Counted from the stretch's first letter, positions 30,051 through 58,215 are shown. The stretch: 64,000 nt of DNA from an uncultured Acidobacteriota bacterium (GCA_963779415.1 CAVZYA010000002.1:64001-128000), one strand, 5' to 3'. Notes: generated by a model not told the origin, from the sequence alone. A program made the numbers and translations.

Positions 30051-30067
30051 GAGAACGGCTCGACGCA

Positions 30068-40354: not shown

Positions 40355-41587
40355 CTACGCCGCCCGCGGGCGGCGCTTCCACCAGATGTAGGGGCGGGCG
40401 AGCGCCCGGATGGCGGTGAGCTTGGCCTCGTAGATCTTCGAGGAGAAGGAGGGGGGCGCGAGGTCCGCCGTCTCCTCCGGCTGGACGACGAGCGACACCT
40501 GGATCTCCGGAAAGACGCCGATGGGGAGCCCCGCGCGCTTGACCGACTCCCAGAGGTGGGCGAAGACATCCTTCATTGCCTCGGGATCCGGGGGCGGCGT
40601 CCTCTCCATCTCGCTTCCGACCGTGGGCCGGAAGATGCAAACGGTCGGGAAGGCTCCGGCGCTCACGATCCGGTCGATGCCACGCTTGGTCGCCTCGATC
40701 GGCTCGGGCCCCGCGATGATCTCGCCCGAGGTCTTTCCCGCGCCGAGCTTCTTCGACGTGTACTCCATCGCGTCGAAGAACGCCTTCTGCCCGAGCGTCT
40801 GTGCCTTGCCGGGGCAGATGCGCGCGAAGACCTCCGGGTCCTCGAACTCGTAGCAGAAGGAGAAATGGTCGGTCCCGGCCTCGATGAGGTCGTCGTACTC
40901 GCGGTAGAGCTCCTTCGGCACCGGGACGGCCTGGACCCCGATGAAGCCGCCGACGCGCGCACGGACGGCGCGGACGAACGGCTCGCACTGTCTCAGGCCG
41001 TGGAGATTCTCGAGGTTTGGCTTGTCCTCGAAGTGATAGCCGGTATTCAGGTGCGTGAAGATCGATCCCGAGCGGTCGCGCGCGGCGAGCGCCGTCTCGA
41101 CGACGTCCTCGACCTTCTTGCGCGACTCCTCGGCCTCGCCGACGTTCCGCCCCGTCGTGCAGAACTTGCAGGCGGGCGCGGCCGGGATCGACCAGTAGAG
41201 GCAGGAGTTCGAGACGTAGATGCCGAGATAGGTCCCCTGCAGGACGCCGACGCGGCTCATCGGGGTTCCCGCGGACGTCGTCCACGAGTACCACTCCGGC
41301 TCGGGAGGGACCTCGACGGGGTAATGCGATCCATCCCGCGCGTCGGCCACGGCCCAGCCGCCGCCCGCGCGCGTCAGGAGAAACGGGGACGACTCCGCGA
41401 AGGACTCGATGACCGGGACGTTCACCCAGATCTTCTTCCTCGGCGACGGGAGGACCAGCTCGAGTCCCGAGCCGAGGCCGGCCCGGGTCCGGGCAATCCG
41501 GCGCGCCGCCTCCTCGACGTGCGCGACCGGGTCGACCCTCATGCCGCGACAGAACAGTTCGATTTCCAGCTCGACGGGTTTCAGCAC
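40355..41587 (-). CDS. Radical SAM protein, MSMEG_0568-like, with Cx10Cx2C motif
   Basis: RTRAGLGSG, SPF.L, P.WY..TTS.G.PM, CLYWSIPAAPACKFC, ICPGKA, FRPT.G. Confidence 0.8.
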   Translation of the reverse strand: MLKPVELEIELFCRGMRVDPVAHVEEAARRIARTRAGLGSGLELVLPSPRKKIWVNVPVIESFAESSPFLLTRAGGGWAVADARDGSHYPVEVPPEPEWYSWTTSAGTPMSRVGVLQGTYLGIYVSNSCLYWSIPAAPACKFCTTGRNVGEAEESRKKVEDVVETALAARDRSGSIFTHLNTGYHFEDKPNLENLHGLRQCEPFVRAVRARVGGFIGVQAVPVPKELYREYDDLIEAGTDHFSFCYEFEDPEVFARICPGKAQTLGQKAFFDAMEYTSKKLGAGKTSGEIIAGPEPIEATKRGIDRIVSAGAFPTVCIFRPTVGSEMERTPPPDPEAMKDVFAHLWESVKRAGLPIGVFPEIQVSLVVQPEETADLAPPSFSSKIYEAKLTAIRALARPYIWWKRRPRAA

Positions 41588-41647
41588 GTCTTTCCCCCCG
41601 GCGCACGTCCCGCGCGCCGGCACGGATGGTACTCCCGCTCCGGTCGG

Positions 41648-41703
41648 CGATGCCGATGTCTCAACCGCGGGAAAAGCCCCACTCGATCAGGGATTTTGCC
41701 CGC
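41648..41703. promoter_or_regulatory. Motif A site (41648-41663) plus inverted pair of GAAAAG boxes (41667-41703)
   Basis: CGATGCCGATGTCTCA; GCGGGAAAAGCCCC...GGGATTTTGCCCGC. Confidence 0.45.
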
Positions 41704-41734
41704 CATCCGGCCCCGAGACCCCTGAAACCGCCCC

Positions 41735-41757
41735 TGATGCGTTGGCATCGCCCTTGC
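41735..41757 (+). promoter_or_regulatory. sigma54 promoter TTGGCATCGCCCTTGC (41742-41757) overlapped by motif A (TGATGCGTTGGCATCG, 41735-41750)
   Basis: Near-perfect TGGCAY-N5-TTGC about 40 bp upstream of the ATG. Confidence 0.7.
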
Positions 41758-41795
41758 CCCCGTTTTCGATATTGGCGAAGGGAGGGTTGACGCTC

Positions 41796-42458
41796 ATGAC
41801 GCCGGCAACTTATGACGTGACCGACAGGCGGGAGGTTCTCCAGGCCCTTGCGGACGGAACACCCGCCGCTTTTGCGACCGATCAGGACGATCGGATCGTC
41901 TTCTGGAACTCGGGCGCCGTCCGGCTTCTCAACCGGGAACCGGACGAGGTTCTCGGACGGAGGGCGCACCGCGTCTTCAAGGAACGCGACCTCTTCGTCC
42001 ATGGGCTTCGCGGCATGAACGTCACCCTCTTGATGATTCCGGGACGGCGCAGCCATCTCTTCACCGTGGTCCACATCCTCCAGGCTCTCGACGACCAGGA
42101 CCTTCCGTCGACCGCCCGTCAGTCTCTCTCCAACTCCTCGTCCTCCTCTTTACGTTCCTTCGCCCCTCCCGTCCCCCTCCGGCTCGCCGTCCCGGATCGT
42201 CCTCCTCTCACCTGTCGCGAGCGGCAGATCCTCGAGCTGATCGCCACCGGCCTCCAGAACAAGGAGGTCGCGCGCGAGCTCTCGATCAGCTCCGTGACGG
42301 TGCGCAATCACGTCCAGAACATCCTCGCGAAGCTGGATGTCCACTCGAAGCTGGAGGCCGTCTCCCTGGCCTACCGCCGGGCGTGGGTTTCGAGCCCGAT
42401 GCGTGGCGCTGCGCCGCCACCTCCGGTCGGTCTCGCGTTCTCGGGCGCGATCGCCTAG
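41796..42458 (+). CDS. PAS + LuxR/NarL-type HTH transcriptional regulator
   Basis: RIVFWNSGAVRLL..EPDEVLGR; LTCRERQIL.LIATGLQNKEVAREL.IS..TVRNHVQNILAKL. Confidence 0.9.
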   Translation: MTPATYDVTDRREVLQALADGTPAAFATDQDDRIVFWNSGAVRLLNREPDEVLGRRAHRVFKERDLFVHGLRGMNVTLLMIPGRRSHLFTVVHILQALDDQDLPSTARQSLSNSSSSSLRSFAPPVPLRLAVPDRPPLTCRERQILELIATGLQNKEVARELSISSVTVRNHVQNILAKLDVHSKLEAVSLAYRRAWVSSPMRGAAPPPPVGLAFSGAIA

Positions 42459-44167: not shown

Positions 44168-44194
44168 GGGAGACAGGAGGGATCGTACCGGTTC

Positions 44195-44210
44195 GGGTAT
44201 GGATCCTGCA
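44195..44210 (+). promoter_or_regulatory. Possible sigma54 promoter GGGTATGGATCCTGCA
   Basis: GG-N10-GC spacing upstream of the receiver/activator operon. Confidence 0.35.
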
Positions 44211-44239
44211 CGCACCCCGGTGGAGGAGTTTGTTCGATC

Positions 44240-44623
44240 GTGCCCGCGAAATCCGGCTCCCCGAAACCTCGACTCCTCGTCGCGGATGAAGACCGGCTGC
44301 TCCGCTGGTCGCTCCGGGAGAAGTTCGCCTCGGCGGGGTGGGAGGTCCTCGAGGCCGGGGAGGGCCTTGCGGCGCTCGACCTCCTCGCTCCGGGGCGGCT
44401 TGACCTCGCGCTCGTGGCGGTCTCGCTTCCGGACCTCGACGGCGCCGCGCTCGCGGCCCGGCTCTTCGCAGCGCATCCCGGTGCCCGGATCGTCCTGATG
44501 ACGTCGGCCGAGCGCTCCGGGGCCGTCGCGTCCTGGGCCGGCGGCTGGCCTCTCGTGGAGAAACCGTTCGACCTTGACGAGCTGGTCGCGTGGGCGTCGT
44601 CCTTCCACGCCGCTTCGAGATAA
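44240..44623 (+). CDS. Single-domain receiver lacking the phospho-acceptor Asp
   Basis: GGAGGAG RBS; LLVADED, DLALVAVSLPDLDG (Asp replaced by Ala), LMTS, EKPFDL. Confidence 0.8.
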   Translation: MPAKSGSPKPRLLVADEDRLLRWSLREKFASAGWEVLEAGEGLAALDLLAPGRLDLALVAVSLPDLDGAALAARLFAAHPGARIVLMTSAERSGAVASWAGGWPLVEKPFDLDELVAWASSFHAASR

Positions 44624-44630
44624 TGGCGGG

Positions 44631-46004
44631 ATGGCCCGTCCCAGGATCCTGGTCGTCGACGACGAGCGTCTGATCCGCTGGACTCTTCGCGAGCGGCTCG
44701 AGGAAGCGGGCTACGCCGTCGTGGAAGCCGGGACGGGGACGGAAGCGCTGGCCCTCGCGGACGAGGGGGCGGATCTCGTCCTGCTCGACTTCCGGCTCCC
44801 GGATCTCGACGGACTCGAGGTGCTGAGGCAGCTCCGCGACCGGCACGCGGAGATGATCGTCATCCTCATCACGGCCCTCGCGACCGTCGAGAACGCCGTC
44901 GAGGCGATGAAGCGGGGGGCGTGGCACTATCTCAACAAGCCGATCGACCTCGACGAGCTTCTTCTCCTCGTCGGGAAAGCCCTCGAGACGACCCGCCTGC
45001 GCCGGGAGGTGAAGAGCCTCAAGGCGAAGGAATCGGCGGGCTACTCCTTCGACCGGATCATCGGAGAGTCGGGGGCGATGCGCGCCGCCAAGGAGCTGCT
45101 CCGGAAGATCGCGCTCTCCCCGGCCTCCACCGTCCTTCTCGTCGGGGAAAGCGGCACCGGGAAGGACCTCGCCGCGAAGGTGATCCATTACGAGAGCGCG
45201 CGCGCCGACGGCGTCTTCCAGAACATCACCTGCTCGGCGCTTCCCGAATCGCTCCTCGAAAGCGAGCTCTTCGGGCACGAACGGGGCGCCTTCACCGACG
45301 CCAAGCAGCAGAAGCCGGGCCTTCTCGAGCAGGCGGACGGCGGGACGGTCTTCCTCGACGAGATCGGTGAGATGACCCCTGCCCTCCAGGCGAAGCTTCT
45401 CCGGTTCCTGGAAGAGAAGACCTTCCGGCGCGTCGGAGGGACGGCCGATCTTCAGGTCGACGTCCGTGTCGTCGCGGCGACGAACCGGAATCTCGAGGAG
45501 CACGTCCGCTCCGAGCGCTTCCGCGAGGACCTCTACTACAGGCTCCGCGTCCTGCCGGTGACGTTGCCGCCGCTCCGCGAGCGGACGGGCGACGTCGCCC
45601 TTCTCGCGTCGCACTTCGTCTCGCAGTACGCGCGCGAGTTCCGGAAAGGGGTCTGGGGGCTGACGGCCGACGCGATCCGGCGTCTCGAGGCGTACGGCTG
45701 GCCCGGGAACGTCCGCGAGCTCAAGAACGCGGTGGAGAGAGCCGTCCTTCTGGCCGAGGGGGAGAGGCTCCTCCCGGAGGACTTTCTCCTCGGTACCGCC
45801 GGCGGAGGTGCCGCCGACGCGTTCAGGCTTCCTCCCGCGGGCGTCGACCTCGAAGAGCTGGAGCGGGACCTCGTCGTCCAGGCGCTCCGGCGGACGGGCG
45901 GCAACCAGACGCAGGCGGCGAAGCTTCTCCGCCTGAACCGCGACCAGATCCGTTACCGGGTCGAGAAGTTCGGACTCGAGAAGCCGGAGCCGTCCGGCCG
46001 CTGA
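44631..46004 (+). CDS. sigma54-dependent response regulator (NtrC/AtoC family)
   Basis: Receiver DLVLLD; GESGTGKD; ESELFGHERGAFTDA; FLDEIGE; WPGNVREL; Fis-type HTH. Confidence 0.95.
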   Translation: MARPRILVVDDERLIRWTLRERLEEAGYAVVEAGTGTEALALADEGADLVLLDFRLPDLDGLEVLRQLRDRHAEMIVILITALATVENAVEAMKRGAWHYLNKPIDLDELLLLVGKALETTRLRREVKSLKAKESAGYSFDRIIGESGAMRAAKELLRKIALSPASTVLLVGESGTGKDLAAKVIHYESARADGVFQNITCSALPESLLESELFGHERGAFTDAKQQKPGLLEQADGGTVFLDEIGEMTPALQAKLLRFLEEKTFRRVGGTADLQVDVRVVAATNRNLEEHVRSERFREDLYYRLRVLPVTLPPLRERTGDVALLASHFVSQYAREFRKGVWGLTADAIRRLEAYGWPGNVRELKNAVERAVLLAEGERLLPEDFLLGTAGGGAADAFRLPPAGVDLEELERDLVVQALRRTGGNQTQAAKLLRLNRDQIRYRVEKFGLEKPEPSGR

Positions 46005-46058
46005 CGTGCCGGCTTTTCCGCTGCCGCGACGACGGCCGGGAAGAGCAGAATCGACGCC

Positions 46059-47840
46059 ATGAGCCGACTCGACCCGCACTCGTACACCGACGGCGCTCAG
46101 CCGCGCGTGACCCACCTCGGACTCGACCTCGCCGCCGATTTCGACCGCCGCGTCCTGTCCGGAACGGCCGTCCTCACGCTCGCGTCTCCCGCGGACGGGG
46201 CGCTCGACCTCGACACGAAGGGGCTCAGGGTCCACGAGGTACGGACCGAGAGCGGCGGCGCCGTGGCATTCGCCCTCGCCGACGAGGAGCCGATTCTCGG
46301 CCGGAAGCTCTCCCTCCAGCTCCCCTCGGGGACACGGCGCATCGCGATCCGGTACGAGACCTCGCCGGAAGCCGTCGCCCTCCAGTGGCTCGACCCTGCA
46401 CAGACCGCCGGGGGGAAGCATCCTTTTCTCTACAGCCAGTGCCAGGCGATCCACGCGCGGACGGTGATCCCGCTCCCGGACACGCCCGCCCGCCGCCTCA
46501 CCTACAGCGCGGCCCTGACCCTTCCCGAGCCTCTCTCGGCCGTCATGTCGGCGGGCCCGGCCGGGGAGCGCCCCGGGGCGCGCCGCGGGACGCGGACGTA
46601 CGGCTTCGAGATGCCGCAGCCGATCCCGACCTATCTTCTCGCCCTCGCCGCGGGGCGGCTCGCCGCCCGCGACCTCTCGCCGCGCTCACGCGTCCACGCC
46701 GAGCCCGAAATCGTGGAGCGCGCGGCGCGGGAGTTCGACGGCGTCGAGACGATGATCCGGACGGCCGAGGGGCTCTTCGGCCCCTACGTCTGGGACCGGT
46801 ACGACATGCTCGTCCTCCCTCCCTCCTTTCCCTACGGCGGGATGGAGAACCCGCGGATGACGTTCCTGACGCCGACGGTGATCGCGGGGGACCGCTCGCT
46901 CGTCGACGTCGTCGCGCACGAGCTTTCCCACTCCTGGACGGGGAACCTCGTCACGAACGCGACGATGGACCACTTCTGGCTGAACGAGGGGGCGACGACG
47001 TGGGCCGAGCGGCGGATCCTCGAGGCTCTGCACGGACCCGACGTCGCGCTCCTCTCCTGGGCGGCCGGCGAGACGGCGCTCTCGCTCGCCTTCGAGCGTT
47101 TCGGGGCCGGGTCGCCCCTGACGAAGCTCCGGACCGACCTTTCGGGCGTCGATCCGGACGAGGCTTTTTCCTCGATCCCGTACGAGAAGGGGGCGCGCTT
47201 CTTCGCCCTCCTCGAGCGGACGACGGGGCGCGAGCGGTTCGACCGCTTCATCGCCGACTACATCGCGCGATTCCGTTTCACGTCGATCACGTCGGAGACG
47301 TTCGTCGCCTTCCTCGACGAGAAGCTCCCGGGCCTCTCGAAGGAGATCCGGGCGGACGACTGGCTCTACGGGACCGGCCTTCCGGCGAACGCGCCCGCCT
47401 TCCATTCGGCGCGCCTTTCGGAGCTCAAGGAGCTCGGGGCCCGCTTCGCCGCCGGGCCGCGGACGGATCGGGCGACGCTCTCGCGCTTTTCGCCGGCCGA
47501 GATGCTCGTCTTCCTCCAGCACGTCCCGCGACCGCTCCCGCCGAGGGGTGCGGCCGATCTCGAAGCGCTCACGGGGTTCCTCGGACAGGGAAACCACGAG
47601 CTTCTCGTCGAGGGGCTGACGATCGCGGCCGCCTCGGACTGGGAGCCCGCCTTCCCGAGGATCCGCGAAGTCCTCGCCTCGGTCGGCCGGATGAAGTACC
47701 TCCGCCCGCTCTACAAGGCGCTCGGCGCCTCGTCCCGGACGCGGGCGCTCGCCCGTGAGATCTTCGGGGAGGCGCGGCCCCGCTATCACGCCCTTTCTCG
47801 CCGCGTCGTCGAGTCGGCTCTCGAGGCCTGGCCGTCATGA
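46059..47840 (+). CDS. M1 family aminopeptidase (leukotriene A4 hydrolase-like)
   Basis: YGGMEN, HELSHSW...WLNEG, YEKG, GRMKYLRPLY. Confidence 0.93.
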   Translation: MSRLDPHSYTDGAQPRVTHLGLDLAADFDRRVLSGTAVLTLASPADGALDLDTKGLRVHEVRTESGGAVAFALADEEPILGRKLSLQLPSGTRRIAIRYETSPEAVALQWLDPAQTAGGKHPFLYSQCQAIHARTVIPLPDTPARRLTYSAALTLPEPLSAVMSAGPAGERPGARRGTRTYGFEMPQPIPTYLLALAAGRLAARDLSPRSRVHAEPEIVERAAREFDGVETMIRTAEGLFGPYVWDRYDMLVLPPSFPYGGMENPRMTFLTPTVIAGDRSLVDVVAHELSHSWTGNLVTNATMDHFWLNEGATTWAERRILEALHGPDVALLSWAAGETALSLAFERFGAGSPLTKLRTDLSGVDPDEAFSSIPYEKGARFFALLERTTGRERFDRFIADYIARFRFTSITSETFVAFLDEKLPGLSKEIRADDWLYGTGLPANAPAFHSARLSELKELGARFAAGPRTDRATLSRFSPAEMLVFLQHVPRPLPPRGAADLEALTGFLGQGNHELLVEGLTIAAASDWEPAFPRIREVLASVGRMKYLRPLYKALGASSRTRALAREIFGEARPRYHALSRRVVESALEAWPS

Positions 47841-49474
47841 GCGCTGCGGCGGAGAATCTCACGCGGCTTCTCGCGGCGAGCCTCGCCGCGAATGCGGAGC
47901 GCCCCGCCTTCACGGACGACGGCGAGGGGACGCTCACGTACGGCGAAGTCGCCTCGCGCGTGGCCCGCCTCCACGCCCTCTTCCGCGCCCTCCACGTGAA
48001 GAGGGGGGACAGGATCGCCCTCCTCGGACGGAACTCGTCGGCATGGGCCACCGTCTACCTCTCGGCGCTCTCGTACGGGGCGGCCGTCGTTCCGATTCTT
48101 CCCGACTTCAAGCGCGAGGACGTCCAGCACATCGTCCGGCACTCGGACGCGGTCCTCCTCTTCGTCCAGGAGACCCTCGCCTCCGGCCTCGAGTACGACC
48201 GGATGCCGGAGCTCTCCGCGACGATCTCGCTCGAGTCGTTCCGGCTCCTTTTCGCCGCGCGCGACCGGACCGCACGCGCCGCCGAGGCCGCCCTCGCCGC
48301 CCCTGCCGGCGCTCCGGTCTTCGAGGAGATCCCGCTCTCCGAGACCGCAGCCATCGTCTACACCTCGGGGACGACCGGCTTCTCGAAGGGGGTCGTACTC
48401 CCCCACGAGAGCCTCCTCGTGAACATCCAGTTCGCGATGCGGCACATGCCGCTTGCGGCCGGCGACACGATCGTTTCGTTTCTCCCGCTCGCGCATGCCT
48501 TCGGCTGCGCTTTCGAGTTCCTCTTTCCCTTCGCCGCGGGGTGTCATGTCACCTTCGTGAACCAGCTTCCAGCGCCGGCCGTCCTGCTCCGCGTCTTCCA
48601 GAGGGTCCGCCCGCGACTCATCCTCTCGGTTCCGCTCGTCCTCGAGAAGATCTACCGCAAGCAGATCCGCCCCCTCCTCGACCGGCCGGTCCCGCGCCTT
48701 CTCCTCCGGGTCCCGCTCCTCCGGAGACGGCTCGGCGCGCGCGTGAAGGCGAAGCTCTCGGCAGCCTTCGGCGGGAACTTCCGCGAGATCGTCGTCGGCG
48801 GCGCCGCGCTCTCGCCGGAGGTCGAGTCCTTCCTGATGGAGATCGGGTTCCCCCTGACGGTGGGTTACGGGATGACGGAGTGCGGACCGCTCATCAGCTA
48901 CGCGGCGTGGTCGGAGCACCGGGCCGGGGCGGTCGGACGGATCATCGACACCCTCGAGGCCCGGATCGACTCGCCCGACCCAAGGAAGGTCCCGGGCGAG
49001 GTCCTCGTTCGCGGCCGGAGCCTCTTTGCCGGCTATCACAAGAACCCCGAGGCGACGCGCGAGGCAATCGACGCCTCCGGCTGGCTTCGGACCGGCGATC
49101 TCGGCCTTCTCGACGAGGGCGGGTTCCTGACGCTCAAGGGACGCGAAAAGACGATGCTCCTCGGCGCCTCGGGGCAAAACATCTACCCCGAGGAGATCGA
49201 GGCGAAGCTGAACGCGCTCCCCTTCGTCGGCGAGTCGCTCGTCCTCGAGAAAGGGGGGCGCCTCGTCGCCCTCGTCTATCCCGACCTCGAACGGGTCGAC
49301 GCGGAGCACGTCTCCGAGTCGGAACTCGCCCGGAAGATGGAGGAGAACCGCGCGGTACTGAACGCTCTTCTCCCTCCTTACGCCGCCGTCTCGAGACTCG
49401 ACCTCTGGCCCGAGGAGTTCATCAAGACGCCGACCCGGAAGATCAAGCGCTTTCTTTACACGCTCCCCTCCTGA
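47837..49474 (+). CDS. Long-chain acyl-CoA synthetase (AMP-binding)
   Basis: YTSGTTGFSKG, GYGMTE, TGDLG, GQNIYPEEIE. Confidence 0.92.
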   Translation: MSAAAENLTRLLAASLAANAERPAFTDDGEGTLTYGEVASRVARLHALFRALHVKRGDRIALLGRNSSAWATVYLSALSYGAAVVPILPDFKREDVQHIVRHSDAVLLFVQETLASGLEYDRMPELSATISLESFRLLFAARDRTARAAEAALAAPAGAPVFEEIPLSETAAIVYTSGTTGFSKGVVLPHESLLVNIQFAMRHMPLAAGDTIVSFLPLAHAFGCAFEFLFPFAAGCHVTFVNQLPAPAVLLRVFQRVRPRLILSVPLVLEKIYRKQIRPLLDRPVPRLLLRVPLLRRRLGARVKAKLSAAFGGNFREIVVGGAALSPEVESFLMEIGFPLTVGYGMTECGPLISYAAWSEHRAGAVGRIIDTLEARIDSPDPRKVPGEVLVRGRSLFAGYHKNPEATREAIDASGWLRTGDLGLLDEGGFLTLKGREKTMLLGASGQNIYPEEIEAKLNALPFVGESLVLEKGGRLVALVYPDLERVDAEHVSESELARKMEENRAVLNALLPPYAAVSRLDLWPEEFIKTPTRKIKRFLYTLPS

Positions 49475-49497
49475 GGCGGCGGCGCCCGGGCCCGGGC

Positions 49498-49554
49498 GCG
49501 AAAAGTTCCGGATCGAACGGGGAAAAGCCCCGCAGAGGCCGGCGAAAAGCCTGC
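49498..49554. promoter_or_regulatory. Three direct GSGAAAAGY boxes with exact 22-bp period (motif B)
   Basis: AAAA tracts start at 49501, 49523 and 49545. Confidence 0.6.
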
Positions 49555-49561
49555 AGACAGC

Positions 49562-49578
49562 CCGGCCCGCCCCTTGCA
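49562..49578 (+). promoter_or_regulatory. sigma54-like promoter CCGGCCCGCCCCTTGCA
   Basis: GG-N10-GC with TTGCA. Confidence 0.45.
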
Positions 49579-49592
49579 CGCGACATCGACAG

Positions 49593-50258
49593 ATGAGGGT
49601 TTCGCCCGTCACACCGAGCATCGCGGAGTCCATAGAAGAACGGCCTTCCGGCGTCCTCGCCCGGGCCGCGCGGCGCGTCGACTTCGATGCCGGTCCTCTT
49701 CCGGAGCGCGCTCTCGCGGCCCTTGGCGGTGTCGTCCCGGCTTCCGGAGCCTTCTTGCGGTTCGTCGTGGAGGAAACCGAGCGGGCGGCCGTCGCGACCC
49801 TCGTCGCCGAAGCCGAGCGCGCTCTCTTCGCCGATCCCGGCTACCGCCTCGCGCTCGGGTCGCGCTGGAGAACGCCCCCGACGGCGGCGACGGACCGGAA
49901 GGAAGAGACCGATCCCCTCCTCCCTGTTCCCGACCTCTTCCCGGGGTTCGGGTCGTTTTACGTCTCCGGATGCGATCTCGCGGACCTGCAGGCCCGCCGC
50001 GACTTTCGTCTTGCCGCCAGCGCGCCGCTCCTCCTCGTCGTGACCGCCCCGGAGAGCCCGGAGGGGCGTGCCGCGGCGGTCGAAACCGGCCGGCGGATCG
50101 TCGTCGCCGCCGAAGAATCCGGGCTCGCGGCCAGCTTCTTCAACCAGCCGGTCTTCGCCCCCGAAGCGGGTCGTCGGCTCTCCGCTCGGCTCGCCCTCCC
50201 CGCGCCGCCGCAGCTTCTCCTCGCCGTCGGCGTGTTGCGGGGCTCTTCTCGCGGTTGA
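49593..50258 (+). CDS. Acg-like (nitroreductase-fold) protein, C-terminal-domain type
   Basis: VATLVAEAERALFADPGYR.ALG..WR; SAPLLLVV; GLAASFFNQPV; PQLLL.VG resemble the Acg/Rv3131 C-terminal half. Confidence 0.65.
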   Translation: MRVSPVTPSIAESIEERPSGVLARAARRVDFDAGPLPERALAALGGVVPASGAFLRFVVEETERAAVATLVAEAERALFADPGYRLALGSRWRTPPTAATDRKEETDPLLPVPDLFPGFGSFYVSGCDLADLQARRDFRLAASAPLLLVVTAPESPEGRAAAVETGRRIVVAAEESGLAASFFNQPVFAPEAGRRLSARLALPAPPQLLLAVGVLRGSSRG

Positions 50259-50271
50259 TTCATCGGCATCA
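50256..50271. promoter_or_regulatory. Motif A site TGATTCATCGGCATCA
   Basis: Matches TGATKC-N4-GMATCA; about 110 bp upstream of the 50380 gene; overlaps the upstream stop codon. Confidence 0.55.
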
Positions 50272-50379
50272 CGACGAATCCTCTCCCGGGGACCCATCTT
50301 TCGTTAGGAAGGCTCTACGCATCCACGCGCGTGGGCTTGAGAGTCTTTCGCGGAGCGCCGGTGCGAAAGGAGGCTCTCC

Positions 50380-52005
50380 ATGGCTCTTGTCGATCTCCAC
50401 CTCCTCGACGGCGAGGCGCCGGTCGGCGTCGATCCCGACCGCGTCATCACATGGCCGGCGCGGGTCCTCCTGCTTCTCCTGCTCGCTCTGACCGCTCTCT
50501 ACGGCCTTCGTCTCTTCCTCCTTCCGCTTCCGGTCGGGGCCATCGCCCCTCCGGCGGAGTTCTCCGCATCCCGTGCGGCCCGCCAGGTGGAGGCCATCGC
50601 CGCCGCACCGGCCGGCATCGAGTCCACCCTCGCCTCCTCCCTCGCATCCCTCGGCCTCGAGGTCGAGCCCGTGCCGGCGCAAAGCCGCGGCGTCGCGGCC
50701 CGCCTCCGGGGGACGCGGCCGTACGGGACGATCCTCCTCGTCACCCCGTACGACCCTGCGGGATCGGCCCCGGGTCTTTCGGGCGCCGCCACGATGCTTG
50801 AGGCCTTTCGGGCGCTCGCGACCGGGCCGAAGCCGAAGAACGACATCCTCGTTCTCTTCTCCGCGACCCGCCCGCTCGACGAAGCGGTCCTCGCGGCATT
50901 CGACGCCGCTTTGGTCCTTCGCTTCGAGCGGATCTCCGACCGCGGCCCTGTCGCTCTTCTCGCCACGACGGCCGGAAGCGGCCGCCTCGTCCGCGAGGCG
51001 CTTCGCGGTCTTCCCCATCCGACCGTGACTCTCGCCGCGAACGATCTCGGGCTTCGTCCCGTCTCGCGGGCGGCGACCCTTTGCTTCGCCGCGATCGGCG
51101 GGCCGTCGACCGTTGCCGCCGGGCCGGATCTCCGGACGATCCAGGATGCCGGCGAGACGGCGCTGGATCTCCTCCGCCGCTTCGGCTCTCAATCGCTCCC
51201 CGTCCCCCCCGGGCCCGACGTCGTCGCCTTCACCGTCGGGCAGGATCAGGTCGTCACGTACCCCGCCAGATGGTCCCGGAGCCTCGGCCTCCTGACCGCC
51301 GCAGCCGCGGTCGTCCTCCTCGCGATCGGCTTCCTCCAAAAGAAGCTCGATCTCCGCCTCTTCGCGACGGGCCTTCTTTTCCATCCGCTCGTCGCCTTCG
51401 TGGCGTGGGCGGCGGCTTTCTTCTTCCTCTCCCTTCTCTTCCGGTTGAATCCCGGAGGCCGTCTTCTCCCGTGGGGAGCGCTGCACGCGGAGTGGTTCGC
51501 GGGTGCCGTTCTCGCCTTGTCGGTCGCGCTCGCGGCTCTCCTCGTGACCCTGCTTCGCGGGTGGCGAAAGAGACCGACGGCCGATCCGGAGCTTGCCGCG
51601 GCAGGCCTTGCCTGGTGGGCCCTCTTCGCCCTCGTGGCGGGGCTCCGTTATCCCGATCTCGCGCTGATCGTCGCCGTGACGCCCCTTCTCCTCATCCCGG
51701 CCTTCCTCGTTCTCTTCTTCACGGAGAATGTCTCACGGCATCCGTGGCTCGGGGGGACGGCCCTCGCCCTCGCCGGCGTCCCGACCGTACTTCTTCTGGC
51801 GCCCGCCTGCCGTCTCCTCGACGTCGTCGCCGGATGGATGGCCCCGGCGCCGCGCCTCTCCGTCGCCGCCGTCTCCGCGGGGCTTTCCGCCCTCGTCGTC
51901 GCGCTCTTTCTCCCGCATCTCTCGCTCCCGCGGAGACGATGGCTCTTCCCGGCGTTCTTCCTCGTCGTGGCGGCCGGGCTCCTCGTGGCGGGCGTCCGCT
52001 TCTAG
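50380..52005 (+). CDS. Multi-TM protein with degenerate M28 peptidase domain
   Basis: EFSA.RA, LLVTPYD, MLE..RAL.TGP..KND...LFS, TIQDAG; the Zn-ligand motifs are lost; about 8 C-terminal TMs. Confidence 0.65.
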   Translation: MALVDLHLLDGEAPVGVDPDRVITWPARVLLLLLLALTALYGLRLFLLPLPVGAIAPPAEFSASRAARQVEAIAAAPAGIESTLASSLASLGLEVEPVPAQSRGVAARLRGTRPYGTILLVTPYDPAGSAPGLSGAATMLEAFRALATGPKPKNDILVLFSATRPLDEAVLAAFDAALVLRFERISDRGPVALLATTAGSGRLVREALRGLPHPTVTLAANDLGLRPVSRAATLCFAAIGGPSTVAAGPDLRTIQDAGETALDLLRRFGSQSLPVPPGPDVVAFTVGQDQVVTYPARWSRSLGLLTAAAAVVLLAIGFLQKKLDLRLFATGLLFHPLVAFVAWAAAFFFLSLLFRLNPGGRLLPWGALHAEWFAGAVLALSVALAALLVTLLRGWRKRPTADPELAAAGLAWWALFALVAGLRYPDLALIVAVTPLLLIPAFLVLFFTENVSRHPWLGGTALALAGVPTVLLLAPACRLLDVVAGWMAPAPRLSVAAVSAGLSALVVALFLPHLSLPRRRWLFPAFFLVVAAGLLVAGVRF

Positions 52006-53427
52006 CCCTTGACGCAGGCAATCGGACGGAGACGGGCCACGCGTGTCGAAAGGCCCGCCTCCTCGGCCACGCGCGCCACTTCCTCGACATCCTTGTAGGC
52101 CCCCGGAGCCTCCTCCGCCGCTCCCGGGGCCGAGTGGGCCTTGATGAGGATGCCGCGCGAGCCGAGCTCCTCGATCAACGCGCCGCCTCGCCACGTCCGC
52201 CTGGCCTGCGTCCGGCTCATCTGCCGTCCCGCGCCGTGGCACGACGAGGCGAACGAGCGCTCCTCTCCCGACTCCGTCCCGGCGAGGATGAAGGAGTACG
52301 TCCCCATCGTCCCGCCGACGAGAACGGGCTGGCCCGCCGCCCGGTAACGATCCGGAAGCTCCGGATGCCCCGGACCGAACGCCCGCGTCGCCCCCTTCCG
52401 GTGAACGAAGAGGCGGCGCGGCTTTCCGTCCACGCGGTGCATCTCCTCCTTGCAGGTGTTGTGGGAGACGTCGTAGAGGAGCGATAGCCGCGCCTCCGGG
52501 AGGCGGCGCGCGAAAACCTCGCGGACGAGATGCCCGATGACCTGCCGGTTCGCGAGCGCGCAGTTGATCGCCGCGCGCATCGCACCGAGGTAGTCCTGCC
52601 CCTCGACTGAGCGGAGGGGTGCCGACGCCAGCTCGCGGTCCGGCAGGACGAGGCCGTACCGCGGGGCCGCCTCGCAGCAGGACCTTCAGATAGTCCGTTC
52701 CGATCTGGTGGCCGAGCCCCCGCGACCCGCAGTGGATCGTGACGAGAAGATCTCCTTGTGCGAGGCCGAATGCGCCGGCCGCGGCGAGATCGAAGACGCG
52801 GTCGACGACCTGAAGCTCGAGGTAGTGATTCCCGGAGCCGAGCGTCCCGATCTCCCCGAGCTGCCTCTCCTTGGCCCGGTCGCTCACTTTCGTCGGATCG
52901 GCGCCGCGCACCCGCCCGTGCTCTTCGACGAAAGCCAGCTCCTCCGTCTCGCCGAACCCTTCCCGGACGGCCCAGGCCGCGCCGTGGACGAGCACCTCGT
53001 CCAGCTCCTTCTTCGAGAGGCGGAGAGCTCCTTCCGAGCCGACGCCGGCCGGGACCGATCGGTAGAGGTCGTCGGCGAGCGGCTCCAGACGGTCGCCGAG
53101 GTCGGAGGCCCCCACTCCCGTCCGGTAGGTCCGGACCCCGCATGAGATGTCGAAGCCGACCCCCCCGGCCGAGACGATCCCGCCGTCGTCCGGGTCGAAC
53201 GCGGCGACGCCGCCGATCGGAAACCCGTAGCCCCAGTGGGCGTCGGGCATGGCATACGCCGCGCCGACGATCCCCGGGAGCGACGCGACGCCGGCGAGTT
53301 GCTCGCTCACCTTCGCGTCGAGCCCCTCGACGAGGCGCCGGCTCGCGTAGAGAACGCCCGGGACCCGCATCCCGCCCTTCTTCGGAAGCTCCCAGACTGT
53401 CGGCGAAACCTCGCGCAGCATCTCCAT
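52002..53427 (-). CDS. rtcB: RtcB RNA ligase (long, archaeal/eukaryotic-like); frameshift ~52674
   Basis: MPDAHWGYGFPIGG, GFDISCG, GSGNHY, HCGSRG, HN, HRKGATRA, HGAGR, EEAP.AYKD, VKG*. Confidence 0.95.
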
Positions 53428-53431
53428 CGCC

Positions 53432-53908
53432 TCAGACGTCGACGACGCACTGGGCCACCCAGCCGCCGTTCTCCCGCGCGACCCGAAGGGCCGTGAGCGT
53501 CGCCCCTTTCGGCTCGACCGTGCTCTCGTGCCGCTTCGCGTCGTAGCGCTCCCCCGCTCCCCGCGCCGCGAGGCGAACCGGGGCTCCGTCCGGCGCCTCG
53601 ATCCGGACGTCGAGACGGGCGAAGAGAAACCGTCGCGTCGCGAAGAGGTAGATCAGCTCGTCGAGGAAGGCGACGAGGAGCCGCTCGAGATCGGGTGCTT
53701 CGCACGCCATCTCGGCTTCCGTTTCGGGCCGGACCGAGGCGGGGTCCCACGCCCAGAGCCGGGAGAGAGCGGCGGCCGCCCCGGCGAACGCCTCCTCCGG
53801 AGTTCCCCCCCGTCCCCGGATGCCGACGTCGGCGCCATGCTCGAACTGCTCGGCGAGGGGCTTTTCCGCGTTCCTCTCCACGACGGTCGAATAGTACGCA
53901 TGCACCAT
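53432..53908 (-). CDS. Archease (start may be GTG at 53880)
   Basis: FEHGADVG, LLVAFLDELIYL, EPKGAT, C-terminal VVDV. Confidence 0.93.
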   Translation of the reverse strand: MVHAYYSTVVERNAEKPLAEQFEHGADVGIRGRGGTPEEAFAGAAAALSRLWAWDPASVRPETEAEMACEAPDLERLLVAFLDELIYLFATRRFLFARLDVRIEAPDGAPVRLAARGAGERYDAKRHESTVEPKGATLTALRVARENGGWVAQCVVDV

Positions 53909-53917
53909 AGCAATGCC

Positions 53918-54030
53918 GGGGGCTCTCCCTCAGATTGAACGTGGCGCCGGACCCTCTCCCCCCAAATTCCGGTGTCGCCGGGCAACCTCAAGGGGCGCCT
54001 CGGAATGGAGGGTCCGGGCCTTTTTCTTTT
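53918..54030 (+). ncRNA. Candidate small RNA: rod with C-rich bulge, GCAA tetraloop and U-tract
   Basis: CCGGACCCTC/GAGGGTCCGG and ATTCCG/CGGAAT stems, G-U pairs only on +, TTTTTCTTTT tail; both flanking genes are on the minus strand. Confidence 0.55.
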
Positions 54031-54932
54031 CATCCCGTCCGGACCGTCAGGACGGGACAGGGTGCCGTCCGGACGAGGTGGTGCGCCGTGGAGCCGAAGA
54101 GAAGAAGGTCCGTGGCGCTCCTCCCCTGCACGCCGAGGACGACGAGGTCGGCCGCCATCTCGTGTACCAGGTGAAGAATCCGCCGCCACGGCTTGCCGAC
54201 GAGAATCCGGATCTCCACGGGTCGTCCCCGGCCTCGCGCCGCGACGAGCGCCTTGAGCCGGACCCGGGCCTCCTTCTCGAGGAGTCGCCGGTACTCCGGT
54301 ACGTTGAAGTGAATCATCTCGGGCGCCTCGGCCTCGGGCACTTCGCCGACGACGTGAAGAGCGGTCACGGCCCCTCCGGACGCCTCCGCGAAGTCGAGCG
54401 CCGTGTCGAACCCCGCCTCGGAAGAGCGCGAGAAGTCGATCGCCGCGACGATCCGGCCGAAGGGGATCGCGGCGGCCGGGCTCTCCTCCGGCTCGCGGGG
54501 AACGGTCAGGACGGGACAAGGTGCCTTGCGGAGCACCTTCTCGGCGACGGAACCGAGAACGAGATTTTCGAATCCGCTGTGGCCGTGAGTTCCGATGACG
54601 ACGAGGGAGTCGGGAATCCGGCGCGCCTCTTCGAGAATCGCCGCGACGGGTTCTCCTTCGGAGACGAGCGACCGGACCGGGATCCCGGCCGAGGTTGCCG
54701 GCTCCGTGAAGCGGAGGAGCCGCTCCCGGATCTTCTCCATCGCCGCCGGGTCGCTCCCAACGGGGACCCAGGCGGGCGGCGTCTCCCGAAGGGGGGCGAG
54801 AGGGCCCGCAAGGACGAAGAGACAGGTCAGATCGGCACCCGACCACCTCGCGAGGAGAGTGGCGAAACGGAGGGAGCGCTCCGAAAAGGTGGAGAAATCG
54901 GTCGGGCAGAGAATGTGTCGGATCCGCAGCAT
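54030..54932 (-). CDS. Universal stress protein with two USP domains
   Basis: ILCPTDFS, VIGTHG..G...LGSVAEKVLRKAPCPVL; AIDFS, FGSTAHHLVRTAPCPVL; GGAGGT RBS. Confidence 0.95.
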   Translation of the reverse strand: MLRIRHILCPTDFSTFSERSLRFATLLARWSGADLTCLFVLAGPLAPLRETPPAWVPVGSDPAAMEKIRERLLRFTEPATSAGIPVRSLVSEGEPVAAILEEARRIPDSLVVIGTHGHSGFENLVLGSVAEKVLRKAPCPVLTVPREPEESPAAAIPFGRIVAAIDFSRSSEAGFDTALDFAEASGGAVTALHVVGEVPEAEAPEMIHFNVPEYRRLLEKEARVRLKALVAARGRGRPVEIRILVGKPWRRILHLVHEMAADLVVLGVQGRSATDLLLFGSTAHHLVRTAPCPVLTVRTG

Positions 54933-55024
54933 GGCCACCTCCGGTCGGGCGGCACGCCACTCCCGAGGCGGCTCCTCGCCGCTCGTCCCACGCCAAGATC
55001 GGACCCGACACGCCCCGCGCGCCA

Positions 55025-55059
55025 TGATGCAAACGGCTCCCGATGACGCGCGCGCATCA
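55025..55059. promoter_or_regulatory. Tandem motif A sites TGATGCAAACGGCTCC (55025-55040) and TGACGCGCGCGCATCA (55044-55059)
   Basis: In the divergent USP/CBS intergenic region. Confidence 0.5.
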
Positions 55060-55121
55060 TGAAATCGCACCGCTTCGGCCCTACTCTTTGCCCGACGGAG
55101 TCCGGCTCCGGGGAGGCGAGG

Positions 55122-55556
55122 ATGAAAGTCCGGGACATCATGCGTACGAACGTCGAGACGGTCGACCAGGAGGAATGTGCCGAGGTCGCCTACAACCGGA
55201 TGCGGGTCCGGCGGATCCGGCACCTCATCGTGGTCTCCGAAGCCGGAATCGTGGGGGTCCTTTCCGAGCGTGATCTCGGAGGAAAGGACCGTGAGGCGAT
55301 GCGCCTGTCGCACAAGGTCCTGAACTTCATGACGCCCTACGCGGTGAAGGCGAGGCCCGGAATGCTCCTGCGGCGGGCGGCCCGACTGATGCGTGGATGG
55401 AACATCGGTTGCCTCCCGGTCGTCGACCGCGGGCGGCTCGTCGGCATCGTGACGGTCTCGGACCTTCTCGATCTCCTGGCCAAGGGGGGGGACCGGACGC
55501 CGGCCCGAACGGTCCGCCGGCCGGCGTCCCGGACGAAACGGGCAGCGACCCGCTGA
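55122..55556 (+). CDS. CBS-pair-only protein
   Basis: MKVRDIM, IRHL.V...IVGVLSERDL, IGCLPVVD.GRLVGIVT.SDLL; GGAGG RBS. Confidence 0.92.
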   Translation: MKVRDIMRTNVETVDQEECAEVAYNRMRVRRIRHLIVVSEAGIVGVLSERDLGGKDREAMRLSHKVLNFMTPYAVKARPGMLLRRAARLMRGWNIGCLPVVDRGRLVGIVTVSDLLDLLAKGGDRTPARTVRRPASRTKRAATR

Positions 55557-55595
55557 AGAGAGAGGTCGCCGCGGAGGCCGGAACCAAGTCCGTGC

Positions 55596-56549
55596 CTAGA
55601 TGACCGTGGTGTCCTGCCAGCCCTGGAGGAGGTGCATCGAGGAGGCGAAGCTGAAGGCGTTCGCGTCCGGCAGCCGCTCCAGGCTCATGCAGCCGCGCAC
55701 CTCGTCGAGCGAGGCGTGGCCGTGGCTCTCGAGCCACCTCTCCATCTCGTCGCGGACCGACTTCAGGTGATCCGGCCCGTTTTGCAGGAGGGCCGAGACC
55801 ATCTGCACCGTGTCGGCGCCCGCGAAGAGAGCCTTCAGGACGTCATGGGCGGTGTGAACGCCGCCGGTCGCCGAGAGCGACAGCTGGAGGCGCCCGGCCA
55901 GCATCGCGATCCAGTGGAGGCGTGGCAGCAGCTCCGCGCTGCTCGAAAGCCTCATCTCCGGTCGGACGGTCCGGGACTCGAGGTCGATCTCCGGCTGATA
56001 GGTCCGGTTGAAGAGGACGAGGCCGGAGACTCCCATCTCGTCGAGCTGCCGGGCGAAGCAGACGATCGACGAGAAGAACGGGTAGATCTTCACGGCGACG
56101 GGGATCGAGACCGAGAGCTTGACGGCCCGGATCATGTCGAGCGTCTGAGCCTCGATCGCAGAGCCGAGGGTCCAGAGGTTCGACGAGACGTGGTAGATGT
56201 TCAGCTCCAGGGCGTCGGCGCCTGCGTCCTGGATGAGACGGGCGAAGCCGGTCCAGCCGATGTCGGTCGTCCCGTTGAGCGACGCGATGACGGGGATCCC
56301 GACGGCTTCCCGGATTCGCCTGATCCGCTCGAGATAGGCGGCCGGCGACTGCTCCGGATGGACGGGGCCGCCCCGCCGCGCCGCCTCGTCGCGCCGCACC
56401 TGCTCCTCGAAGAGCGAGCGGAGGATGACCGCCGGGGCGCCGGCGTCCTCCAGCGCCCGAACCGTGTCGAGGTCCCACGTGAGGGGGGACGCTCCCGGCA
56501 CGATCGGACTGGCGAGCTTCAGACCGAGATAGCTCGTGGAGAGATCCAC
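55596..56549 (-). CDS. Dihydroorotate dehydrogenase-like flavoprotein
   Basis: DLSTSYLGLKL.SP, SLFEEQ, IASLNG, ALELNIY, GLVLFNR.YQP.ID, ATGGVHT. Confidence 0.85.
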   Translation of the reverse strand: MDLSTSYLGLKLASPIVPGASPLTWDLDTVRALEDAGAPAVILRSLFEEQVRRDEAARRGGPVHPEQSPAAYLERIRRIREAVGIPVIASLNGTTDIGWTGFARLIQDAGADALELNIYHVSSNLWTLGSAIEAQTLDMIRAVKLSVSIPVAVKIYPFFSSIVCFARQLDEMGVSGLVLFNRTYQPEIDLESRTVRPEMRLSSSAELLPRLHWIAMLAGRLQLSLSATGGVHTAHDVLKALFAGADTVQMVSALLQNGPDHLKSVRDEMERWLESHGHASLDEVRGCMSLERLPDANAFSFASSMHLLQGWQDTTVI

Positions 56550-56586
56550 GTCGTGCAACCTGCCGGAGGGGCGCCGGGGCCGTCCA

Positions 56587-56665
56587 TGATTCATCTGTTT
56601 CACCACGGGAGGACCGGGCGCACTGCTGATTCATCGGGCTCAGGCCCCGGGGGGCGAAAAGTCCT
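56587..56665. promoter_or_regulatory. Two motif A sites (56587-56602, 56627-56642) and a motif B box GCGAAAAGTCCT (56654-56665)
   Basis: TGATTCATCTGTTTCA and TGATTCATCGGGCTCA, 40 bp apart. Confidence 0.55.
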
Positions 56666-56914
56666 AGGTTGAAGGAGAGACCGGCTCCCTTTCGACCCGG
56701 GCCTCCGAAGACGCCTCTCGCCGCCTCACCCTCCCGCCCAACGCGAAAGGCGCCCTCGGGGAGTCCCTCCGTGGCGCACGGCGGCTCGCCGCCGTGCGCC
56801 ACACCTTTCCGGCGCGCCGGACCCGGCTGGACGATTGGCCGGATCCGTGAGACTCTGCATCGTTCCGGCGCGGCGCGCCCGACGCGCCCCGGAGCAGAAA
56901 GTGACCCCTGCTCA

Positions 56915-58200: not shown

Positions 58201-58215
58201 CGCGACAATTCGGGA

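Follow-up and report, generated by a model that had tools for sequence, protein, structure and literature searches.

The subject of this study is an island of genes at 41.6–56.7 kb of a 64,000-nt stretch of DNA (~69% G+C; hereafter the window) from an Acidobacteriota bacterium of soil or sediment, in which a tandem universal stress protein (USP), a stand-alone CBS-pair protein, an Acg-related protein, a DHOD-like flavoprotein and the RNA-repair pair archease-RtcB are encoded close to a PAS histidine kinase, a pseudo-receiver, a sigma-54 activator and a PAS-LuxR regulator. An initial annotation of the window had taken this island for one sigma-54-wired regulon resembling the DosR regulon of Mycobacterium tuberculosis. 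A single regulon was not indicated by our analysis, because the cis-elements fall in at least three different sets, and no −24/−12 motif was found at the USP, CBS, archease-RtcB and DHOD-like genes. We consider the island to be an accessory stress-survival neighbourhood of several control units, not one regulon, a reading to which we give about even credence.

Genes were called by third-position G+C and named by Pfam and NCBIfam profiles. All gene types listed in the initial annotation were present in the island by these profiles, as follows.

41796–42458, plus strand: PAS-LuxR one-component regulator, 220 aa (Pfam GerE E 8e-21; PAS E 2e-5, partial)
42455–~44188, minus strand: membrane-anchored PAS histidine kinase (HisKA and HATPase_c by Pfam; start approximate)
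44234–44623, plus strand: stand-alone pseudo-receiver (PF00072 E 1.1e-13)
44631–46004, plus strand: NtrC/AtoC-type response regulator and sigma-54 activator (REC-AAA+-HTH_8; Sigma54_activat E 2.7e-66)
46059–47840, plus strand: LTA4H-like M1 aminopeptidase (Pfam, NCBIfam)
47837–49474, plus strand: acyl-CoA ligase (Pfam, NCBIfam)
49593–50258, plus strand: Acg-related protein, 221 aa (NF047509, below cut-off)
50380–52005, plus strand: polytopic membrane protein, M28-like (Pfam M28 E 0.13 only)
52002–53427, minus strand: RtcB RNA ligase, read in two frames
53432–53908, minus strand: archease (Pfam E 5.3e-36)
54030–54932, minus strand: tandem USP with two Usp domains, 300 aa (Pfam E 1.1e-58, two stretches)
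55122–55556, plus strand: stand-alone CBS-pair protein, 144 aa (Pfam CBS E 1.1e-23, two stretches)
55596–56594, minus strand: DHOD-like flavoprotein of the PRK07565 subfamily (NF005741 360.6 bits, cut-off 303)

The PAS-LuxR regulator is without a receiver domain, and its PAS core is shorter than that of a second PAS-LuxR protein of the same genome (C1:587007–587669), to which it is 30% identical with a gap of ~31 aa in the PAS domain. In the long open reading frame (ORF) of the kinase, the upstream stretch runs antisense to the pseudo-receiver gene. The pseudo-receiver is 45% identical to the receiver of the adjoining activator; it has Ala at the position of the phospho-acceptor Asp and reads A-D at the acidic pair (LALVAVSLPDLDG versus DLVLLDFRLPDLDG in the activator), and orthologues were found in the relatives G002, G003 and G004. 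The activator scored 458 bits against AtoC and 306.6 bits against RtcR of NCBIfam, each under its cut-off. Three genes interleaved with these had not been listed by the initial annotation, namely those for the M1 peptidase, the acyl-CoA ligase and the M28-like membrane protein. The peptidase and the ligase have no evident tie to stress or RNA repair, and the membrane protein gave a first match of 0.96 in the ESM Atlas, in clusters carrying PF04389 (M28-like by features).

Cis-elements upstream of the island genes

Since a raw scan of the window for the sigma-54 consensus was at chance level, only conservation was used as promoter evidence, and for this purpose the orthologous intergenic regions from genus relatives were aligned. 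Three GG-N10-GC motifs (at 41743, 44195 and 49563) had invariant key bases and varying spacers in these alignments:

41743–41758, plus strand: P1, candidate sigma-54 promoter TGGCATcgcccTTGCC, 38 nt before the start codon of PAS-LuxR
44195–44210, plus strand: P2, candidate sigma-54 promoter GGGTATggatcCTGCA, preceding the operon of pseudo-receiver and activator
49563–49578, plus strand: P3, candidate sigma-54 promoter CGGCCCgccccTTGCA, ahead of the Acg-related gene

TGGCAT and TTGC of P1 were invariant in all four aligned genus genomes, with variation in the 5-nt spacer. GGTA(Y)-N-TGCA of P2 was kept at GG-N10-GC spacing in 4/4 aligned genomes, and CGGC(C/G)C-N5-TTGC(A/T) of P3 was kept with differing spacers in 5/5 genomes, including G003, G005, G002 and G004. 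Taken together with the presence of rpoN in the window's genome and with the adjoining activator, these sites are consistent with control by sigma-54. No conserved GG-N10-GC was found in the aligned genus regions upstream of the USP, CBS, archease-RtcB and DHOD-like genes. The −24/−12 promoters claimed in the initial annotation were recovered, as conserved motifs, at PAS-LuxR, the pseudo-receiver/activator operon and the nitroreductase-like (Acg-related) gene, and a sigma-54 circuit appears to reach, as far as is visible, the regulators and the nitroreductase-like gene only.

Other conserved elements were located in the same intergenic regions (no strand was assigned where none is given):

41649–41701: conserved upstream element with a 32-nt repeat GATGCCGATGTCTCAACCGCGGGAAAAGCCCC and an inverted GGGAAAAGCCC-type pair ~21 nt apart
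49498–49578, plus strand: three GAAAAG-type motifs at 22-nt spacing (49498, 49520 and 49542), directly upstream of P3
50256–50271: TGAWTCA-NN-TGAWTCA-type site TGATTCAtcGGCATCA, overlapping the nitroreductase-like stop codon and conserved in G003 and G005
53930–54029, nominally minus strand: invariant noncoding element with a ~85-nt core, between the USP stop and the archease start
54933–55121: divergent USP/CBS control region with blocks AAGATCGGACCCG, CCATGATGCAAACG and GATGACGCGCGCGCATCATGAAAT and a TAnnnT −10-like box (7 genus genomes aligned)
56587–56664: start/promoter region of the DHOD-like gene, with TGAWTCA-type repeats at 56587–56602 and 56627–56642 (3 mismatches) and a GAAAAG-type motif at 56654

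The GAAAAG-type motif is locally enriched: CCGATGNNTCA has 19 copies genome-wide, 3 of which are within the 16-kb island, and the pattern G[CG]GAAAAG[CT][CT]C has 41 and 4, respectively; at ≤2 mismatches, 6 copies were counted in ~1.3 kb of island intergenic DNA versus 0.46 per kb genome-wide. The element at 41649–41701 lies 45–95 nt upstream of P1 and is kept in G003, G002 and G004. Its 32-nt repeat recurs in inverted orientation at 50239–50270 with 28/32 identity. A coding origin of this repeat was considered and rejected: the minus-strand ORF 49443–50297, which begins PAS-LuxR-like, is junk-like and has no family match, and the repeat was therefore taken as noncoding similarity. Besides the three copies ahead of P3, one further GAAAAG-type motif precedes the DHOD-like gene, and none was found upstream of P2, the USP/CBS genes or archease. 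The shared operators proposed by the initial annotation were thus recovered as motifs common to the upstream regions of the PAS-LuxR, nitroreductase-like and DHOD-like genes.

The TGAWTCA-type repeats at the start of the DHOD-like gene are kept in 7/7 genus genomes, and the site at 50256–50271 is placed 109 nt upstream of the membrane-protein gene. The palindrome TGATTCANNTGAATCA (7-2-7, TGATTCA-NN-TGAATCA) was counted over the genome along with six composition-matched control palindromes, giving 5 sites versus 0 for each control at ≤1 mismatch and 15 sites versus 0–2 at ≤2 mismatches. Three of these 15 are in the window (12126, 50256 and 56587), and those outside include C1:582489, C1:599178, C2:292824, C2:1255880 and C2:1636461. 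The remaining sites precede genes for pyruvate:ferredoxin oxidoreductase, two multihaem cytochrome operons, ETF, a GGDEF protein, a branched-chain amino-acid transporter, ArsR and efflux proteins, which suggests that the palindrome may be the operator of a global redox regulon. The 7-2-7 geometry is typical of NarL/LuxR sites. Because of this geometry, and because the paralogous PAS-LuxR gene adjoins a CBS gene and a palindrome-bearing cytochrome operon, the PAS-LuxR proteins are candidate binders of the palindrome. The region of that paralogue (C1:574000–610000; L102, L103) holds three stand-alone CBS-pair genes, the 220-aa PAS-LuxR, a HisKA_3 kinase with a LuxR-type gene nearby, multihaem cytochromes and two palindrome sites. 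The best palindrome site of the genome (0 mismatches, 12126–12141) is found between two genes of the minus-strand group at 11559–13241, which is composed of a PF00881 nitroreductase (12552–13241), a small unknown ORF and a DUF6265 protein. A TGAT-N8-ATCA palindrome that G029 and G039 have upstream of archease was not counted as the same operator; it stands between archease and a divergent ZnuA-type/signal-peptide gene (L034 of G029, 8227–10420; L045 of G039, ~9100–9200) and may be a metal-regulator box.

No −24/−12 motif was found in the divergent USP/CBS region among the 7 aligned genus genomes. The blocks of this region and the ~85-nt element ahead of archease make up the cis-elements of the remaining effector genes.

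Archease-RtcB, the Acg-related protein and their neighbourhood in relatives

The archease and RtcB genes are co-oriented, with the archease stop codon 4 nt before the RtcB start codon. RtcB was present as the initial annotation had it, with its frame broken near 52674 in this assembly. The gene is in frame in 7/7 genus relatives, and every contig of three public runs (X1, X3 and X4) that covers 52674 is without one base there; since a peptidase S46 gene is split likewise (62219–63852, two overlapping ORFs), an indel of the assembly is the likeliest cause. With the frame break set down to assembly, archease and a full-length RtcB form an adjacent, co-oriented operon. A single-base indel error is also suspected in a protein kinase ORF at 2218–4137 (region 656–4137), whose N-lobe is apparently missing. 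RtcA (PF01137) was not found in the 92% complete genome, which has no Ro/TROVE gene either, and PADLOC gave generic domain matches only and no defence system.

The 121 nt from the USP stop to the archease start hold the ~85-nt core, which is nearly invariant in 8 genus genomes and in 16 metagenome contigs retrieved with a 30-nt sub-pattern (loci L019–L025 and L104–L119 besides the window), with flanks that vary freely. Invariance extends as well to the first 20 nt of archease, third codon positions included. The element is single-copy in each genome, is kept in G005 despite the missing USP gene and was found in the genus only: it was not found upstream of archease in G029, G039 and G040, and no convincing match was obtained in 114 other genomes of the order. 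Neither strand matched an Rfam family at E≤1. A tRNA or tmRNA was ruled out by a tRNA/tmRNA search, a coding role was ruled out because single-base indels are tolerated, and a bacterial Y RNA (YrlA-type) was dropped with no Rfam match and no TROVE gene. A nested hairpin was predicted, with no covariation: no pair had compensatory changes, and a few changes break pairs; folding energies were unremarkable on both strands (z −0.67 and −1.64). On the plus strand a long hairpin is followed by a T-run, so that a small RNA encoded antisense would be as possible as an archease-rtcB leader. The USP-element-archease-RtcB arrangement typical of the genus was also present, at 70–87% protein identity, on a 3.9-kb contig labelled Acidithiobacillales (L021), which is probably a mis-binned or mislabelled Thermoanaerobaculia contig.

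The Acg-like nitroreductase of the initial annotation was retained as to its fold and not as a full family member. Its match to NF047509 was 59.9 bits (cut-off 199, E 2.8e-16), covering model positions 106–301 of 319, and at 221 aa it falls short of the full-length (~320–330 aa), two-lobed Acg family FMN oxidoreductases. It had no Pfam match and no relative among PDB sequences in a sequence search, and belongs to a narrow family of ~215–223-aa proteins, with longer orthologues in G002 and G004. An AlphaFold2 model (pLDDT 79.4) had a nitroreductase/flavin-reductase fold, and a Foldseek search with this model returned BluB, iodotyrosine deiodinase (IYD), the FbiB C-domain and NfnB at E ~5e-6. 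A nitroreductase/flavin-reductase fold is thus supported by the predicted structure.

The window's genome (G000; 4.36 Mb, 3 contigs) has 3 USP genes (4 domains) and one gene each for archease, RtcB and the Acg-related protein, along with ~14 CBS-pair genes, 5 of them short and stand-alone. Since the USP genes are so few and the other three are single-copy, their proximity within 6 kb is not due to chance. On the other hand, a sigma-54 activator would lie within 10 kb of any given gene in ~1 of 9 cases by chance (~24 activator genes in 4.36 Mb). The genome also holds 11 GerE-type genes.

The whole arrangement from the radical SAM gene to the SPFH gene is kept within the genus, to which the regulators and the full arrangement are confined. 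Gene content varies among the relatives: G001 is without the ligase, Acg-related and membrane-protein genes, and G005 is without USP; G003 and G005 have an extra hydrolase gene between the Acg-related and membrane-protein genes, where G003 also has a CBS gene; and G003 carries a 6-kb insertion after the activator. Archease was found in 7/7 other genomes of the genus, in 0/17 genomes from other genera of the family and in 5/16 genomes from other families of the order. The genes bordering the island and a further gene set of the window that bears on the host are:

27665–29005: TolC-like OEP gene, part of an OEP/HlyD/MFS set at 27665–31621
40355–41623, minus strand: variant radical SAM
56915–58528, plus strand: RhlE helicase

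Upstream of RhlE, a perfect long GC-rich hairpin (GTGGCGCACGGCGG..CCGCCGTGCGCCAC, 56771–56803) is kept in G001, G003, G005 and G007. Judged from its relatives, the host is an Acidobacteriota bacterium of the class Thermoanaerobaculia, as the archease loci of the closest relatives were from Thermoanaerobaculia or Acidobacteriota metagenome-assembled genomes; these relatives, the TolC-like gene and rpoN bear out the diderm, non-actinobacterial host that had been proposed from the sequence.

An archease-profile scan of one genome per species gave 71 loci, comprising 7 of the genus, 18 other Acidobacteriota/Thermoanaerobaculia loci and 46 of other phyla, mostly Pseudomonadota. RtcB adjoins archease at every locus with enough contig, and the DHOD-like, Acg-related, activator and PAS-LuxR proteins matched genus loci only, save weak matches and an activator of different build in L035. 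In six Thermoanaerobaculia loci from outside the genus, annotated with Pfam (107 ORFs), archease-RtcB stood among single or tandem USPs, several CBS pairs, BON proteins, PF00881 nitroreductases, PfkB and S30AE factors. The same loci also hold radical SAM proteins, phosphoribosyltransferases, P-type cation ATPases, DUF302, Pat-like acyl-CoA synthetase/GNAT proteins and FeoAB, and one has a PAS sigma-54 activator. The frequencies of families near archease were compared by tblastn as listed below (non-genus Acidobacteriota loci, then other phyla), a comparison that counts for less in favour of our reading in that the queries were from Thermoanaerobaculia, with a bias against distant phyla, and in that the loci are related and not independent, some of them being short.

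USP: 10/18; 3/46
CBS: 11/18; 8/46
HPF: 8/18; 8/46
PfkB: 6/18; 0/46
phosphoribosyltransferase: 8/18; 7/46
P-type ATPase: 5/18; 4/46
nitroreductase: 4/18; 0/46
BON: 4/18; 2/46

A count of USP domains by hidden Markov model (HMM), which is free of the query-lineage bias, gave 7 of 14 matches within 41 kb of archease in G029 and 8 of 12 within 31 kb in G039. One USP match was 4 kb from archease in G040, with five more in a second cluster elsewhere, and the archease contigs of the fragmented genomes G026 and G032 had none. In G039, a KaiC-like ATPase and a hybrid kinase are further members of the 40-kb region, and the DHOD-like orthologue is directly beside pyruvate:ferredoxin oxidoreductase and hydrogenase-like subunits. 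The sole S30AE hibernation-factor gene of the window's genome adjoins rpoN (C1:443362–444224), and in sister genera this gene is next to RtcB. The linkage expected in relatives was accordingly seen in part: archease-RtcB stands among USP and CBS genes in other Thermoanaerobaculia, and the full arrangement is found in the genus only.

Competing readings of the island

The identities of the genes, the conservation of the motifs, the synteny throughout the genus and the association of families across the class are shown by the data above, whereas the pairing of regulators with motifs, the signal and any co-induction are what we infer. Three units are distinguished. Unit 1 would be a sensing cascade composed of the membrane PAS histidine kinase, the pseudo-receiver and the NtrC-type sigma-54 activator, in which the phosphorylated activator would act on its own operon (P2), on PAS-LuxR (P1) and on the genes for the nitroreductase-fold and M28-like membrane proteins (P3); the GGGAAAAGCCC-type repeats upstream of P1 and P3 would be likely sites for the activator or PAS-LuxR. 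Unit 2 would be the archease-RtcB operon, preceded by the ~85-nt element and the tandem USP gene, with the divergent CBS-pair gene, and would probably mend tRNA or rRNA that has been cleaved in the course of growth arrest. Unit 3 would be the DHOD-like gene with its TGAWTCA-NN-TGAWTCA operators. It would belong to a genome-wide redox/anaerobic regulon, because the same operators precede pyruvate:ferredoxin oxidoreductase, multihaem cytochromes and ETF, and this regulon would possibly be under PAS-LuxR-type proteins.

Several observations weigh against this scheme. The raw scan found TGGCACN5TTGCW 10 times in the window versus 8.5 expected, P1–P3 are moderate matches to the sigma-54 consensus, and no site of the window scores ≥7/8. 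The PAS-LuxR of the window has a truncated PAS domain. P2 has no GAAAAG-type motif, and the USP, CBS and archease-RtcB genes carry neither GAAAAG nor TGAWTCA, so that their link to the regulators is positional only. With 11 GerE-type and ~24 activator genes in the genome, it is a guess which regulator either motif belongs to. Finally, flanking housekeeping genes (RhlE, SPFH) are also syntenic, and gene order alone defines no island.

One DosR-equivalent hypoxia/dormancy regulon, in which all effectors are induced together via the sigma-54 activator and PAS-LuxR, would accommodate the overlap of the effector families with the DevR table (PMC3177182, PMC5309233, as far as their tables go), the conserved −24/−12 motifs at the regulators and the nitroreductase-like gene, the motifs common to the PAS-LuxR, nitroreductase-like and DHOD-like upstream regions, and the denser clustering of the same families in sister genera. 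However, the USP, CBS and archease upstream regions have no −24/−12, GAAAAG or TGAWTCA motif, Dev-box-like palindromes are at chance level, neither a receiver-LuxR nor a GAF kinase is present, unrelated genes are interleaved in a gene content that varies in the genus, and the regulators are missing from the archease clusters of other genera; we find such a regulon distinctly improbable. A rather unlikely alternative is that the genes have no functional link at all, their order reflecting shared recent ancestry in one genus and the resemblance to DosR arising from the picking of common stress families. The confinement of the full arrangement to the genus would be expected in that case, as would the equal synteny of the flanking RhlE, cyclase, SPFH and radical SAM genes, the interleaved peptidase and ligase, the wide occurrence of USP and CBS families and the frequency with which an activator is near any gene by chance. 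Yet the genome has no more than 3 USP genes and one gene each for archease, RtcB and the Acg-like protein, and these lie within 6 kb of one another; USP/CBS genes surround archease-RtcB in 10–11 of the 18 other Acidobacteriota loci, with the USP genes concentrated there, and the cis-motifs common to three island intergenic regions are rare elsewhere. The patchy occurrence of archease in the order would also fit an RNA repair that counters conflict, in which archease-RtcB would restore RNAs that toxin or phage ribonucleases have cut, its neighbours being accessory, and RtcB operons are described in PMC6514570, in the part that treats them, as sporadic systems answering effector RNases. This we judge very unlikely, as PADLOC found only generic domains, RtcA, an RtcR CARF domain and Ro/TROVE are absent, no prfH-type partner was seen, and the genes found around the pair in relatives belong to hibernation, USP, CBS and metabolism, not to conflict.

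Beyond the neighbourhood of several control units that we prefer, it is conceivable, though unlikely, that the Thermoanaerobaculia have a dormancy/hibernation toolkit whose families (USP, CBS, nitroreductase, PfkB, HPF, P-type ATPase, phosphoribosyltransferase and archease-RtcB) correspond one by one to those of the DosR regulon, in islands that are rewired, here from PAS kinase to NtrC-type activator to PAS-LuxR, with the ~85-nt element as a cis-RNA or ligase partner gating repair. If the association of families holds, the mycobacterial dormancy families would form a survival kit that recurs and can be transferred and would not be peculiar to actinobacteria, the kit could sit under quite different sensors, and a non-pathogenic setting would be at hand to study the joint roles of USP, CBS-pair, Acg-type and archease-RtcB proteins in growth arrest. 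Very little regulation has been mapped in this phylum, and the −24/−12 motifs, the TGAWTCA operator with its redox targets and the invariant element upstream of archease are concrete items that can be tested.

Comparison with known systems

The rtcBA operon of E. coli is sigma-54/RtcR-dependent. The island is similar to such RtcR-controlled rtcBA operons of Proteobacteria in that RtcB is near an activator whose AAA+ and HTH part scores well with RtcR-type models: it matched RtcR_PspF2 of PADLOC with 347.8 bits besides its match to RtcR of NCBIfam. It differs from them in that the activator has a receiver where RtcR has CARF (the matches start at model position 108–123 and are below the 650-bit cut-off), in that no −24/−12 motif lies upstream of archease-rtcB, and in that archease is the partner in place of RtcA. 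The adjoining, co-oriented genes 4 nt apart resemble the archease-RtcB ‘tRNA splicing operon’ as presented by Desai et al. (2014, PMC3973293; 2015, PMC4604427), whereas the invariant ~85-nt element upstream and the USP, CBS and flavoprotein neighbours are features of the present locus.

A closer likeness is to the RtcB/hibernation stress operons. Around Balon, Helena-Bueno et al. (2024, PMC10901736) mention "stress-response operons" in which RaiA and OsmY are joined by RtcB and the hypoxia factor Hrp1. Burroughs and Aravind (2019, PMC6514570), in their account of RtcB operons as RNA-repair systems, note stress neighbourhoods that are linked to HPF. RtcB beside RaiA/HPF, OsmY/BON and hypoxia-response genes is common to these operons and to our loci, where HPF is next to RtcB in 8/18 and BON in 4/18 of the non-genus Acidobacteriota loci. 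Unlike in those operons, no Balon/aeRF1-like gene was flagged by Pfam in the window or the annotated loci, the HPF gene of the window's genome is outside the island, and the density of USP/CBS genes and the sigma-54/PAS-LuxR module go beyond the operons as set out in the relevant parts of the two papers. The literature on DosR, archease/RtcB, dormancy and Thermoanaerobaculia yielded no description of a DosR-like cluster in Acidobacteria. Genes for hibernation and osmotic stress have already been published as neighbours of RtcB (PMC10901736, in its passage on these operons). Our finding as it stands rests on comparative genomics, and much of it fits these described operons.

With regard to the M. 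tuberculosis DevR/DosR regulon, the regulators beside the genes are those of a different control circuit, as had been proposed: the island has a PAS kinase, a pseudo-receiver, an NtrC-type sigma-54 activator and a PAS-LuxR solo, and no receiver-LuxR, GAF/haem kinase or Dev boxes, and at least three upstream motif sets are found on effector genes, in a different phylum. The Dev box has a core of GGGAC...GTCCC; GGGACN4GTCCC at ≤1 mismatch occurred 8 times in the window versus 8.95 expected, with none in island intergenic DNA. In the regulon, Rv2630 is presumably an archease, and Rv2029c is a protein that we take to be a PfkB kinase. In the DevR regulon table of PMC3177182, the USP gene Rv2623 is listed with the operons Rv2626c-Rv2625c-Rv2624c and Rv2628-Rv2629-Rv2630-Rv2631, the nitroreductases acg/Rv2032, Rv3131 and Rv3127, ctpF/Rv1997, Rv0079 and Rv0571c, and the hspX operon with Rv2029c, and Dev boxes are placed there in tandem upstream of regulon genes. 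Rv2631 is given as RtcB and Rv0571c as a phosphoribosyltransferase in the corresponding part of PMC5309233, which also states, citing another study, that DosR genes are conserved in environmental bacteria; an S30AE protein is placed under DosR regulation in PMC3390679, in the passage concerned. The overlap of protein families with this regulon, and especially with Rv2623–Rv2631, was upheld by the tables of PMC3177182 and PMC5309233: USPs, the CBS-pair protein Hrp1, Acg-type nitroreductases and RtcB with Rv2630 all have counterparts in the island, with the Acg match sub-threshold. In the sister Thermoanaerobaculia clusters, PfkB, the S30AE factor, a P-type cation ATPase and a phosphoribosyltransferase are additional counterparts. 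At the level of protein families, the parallel with DosR holds, and it is fuller in the sister genera than in the window.

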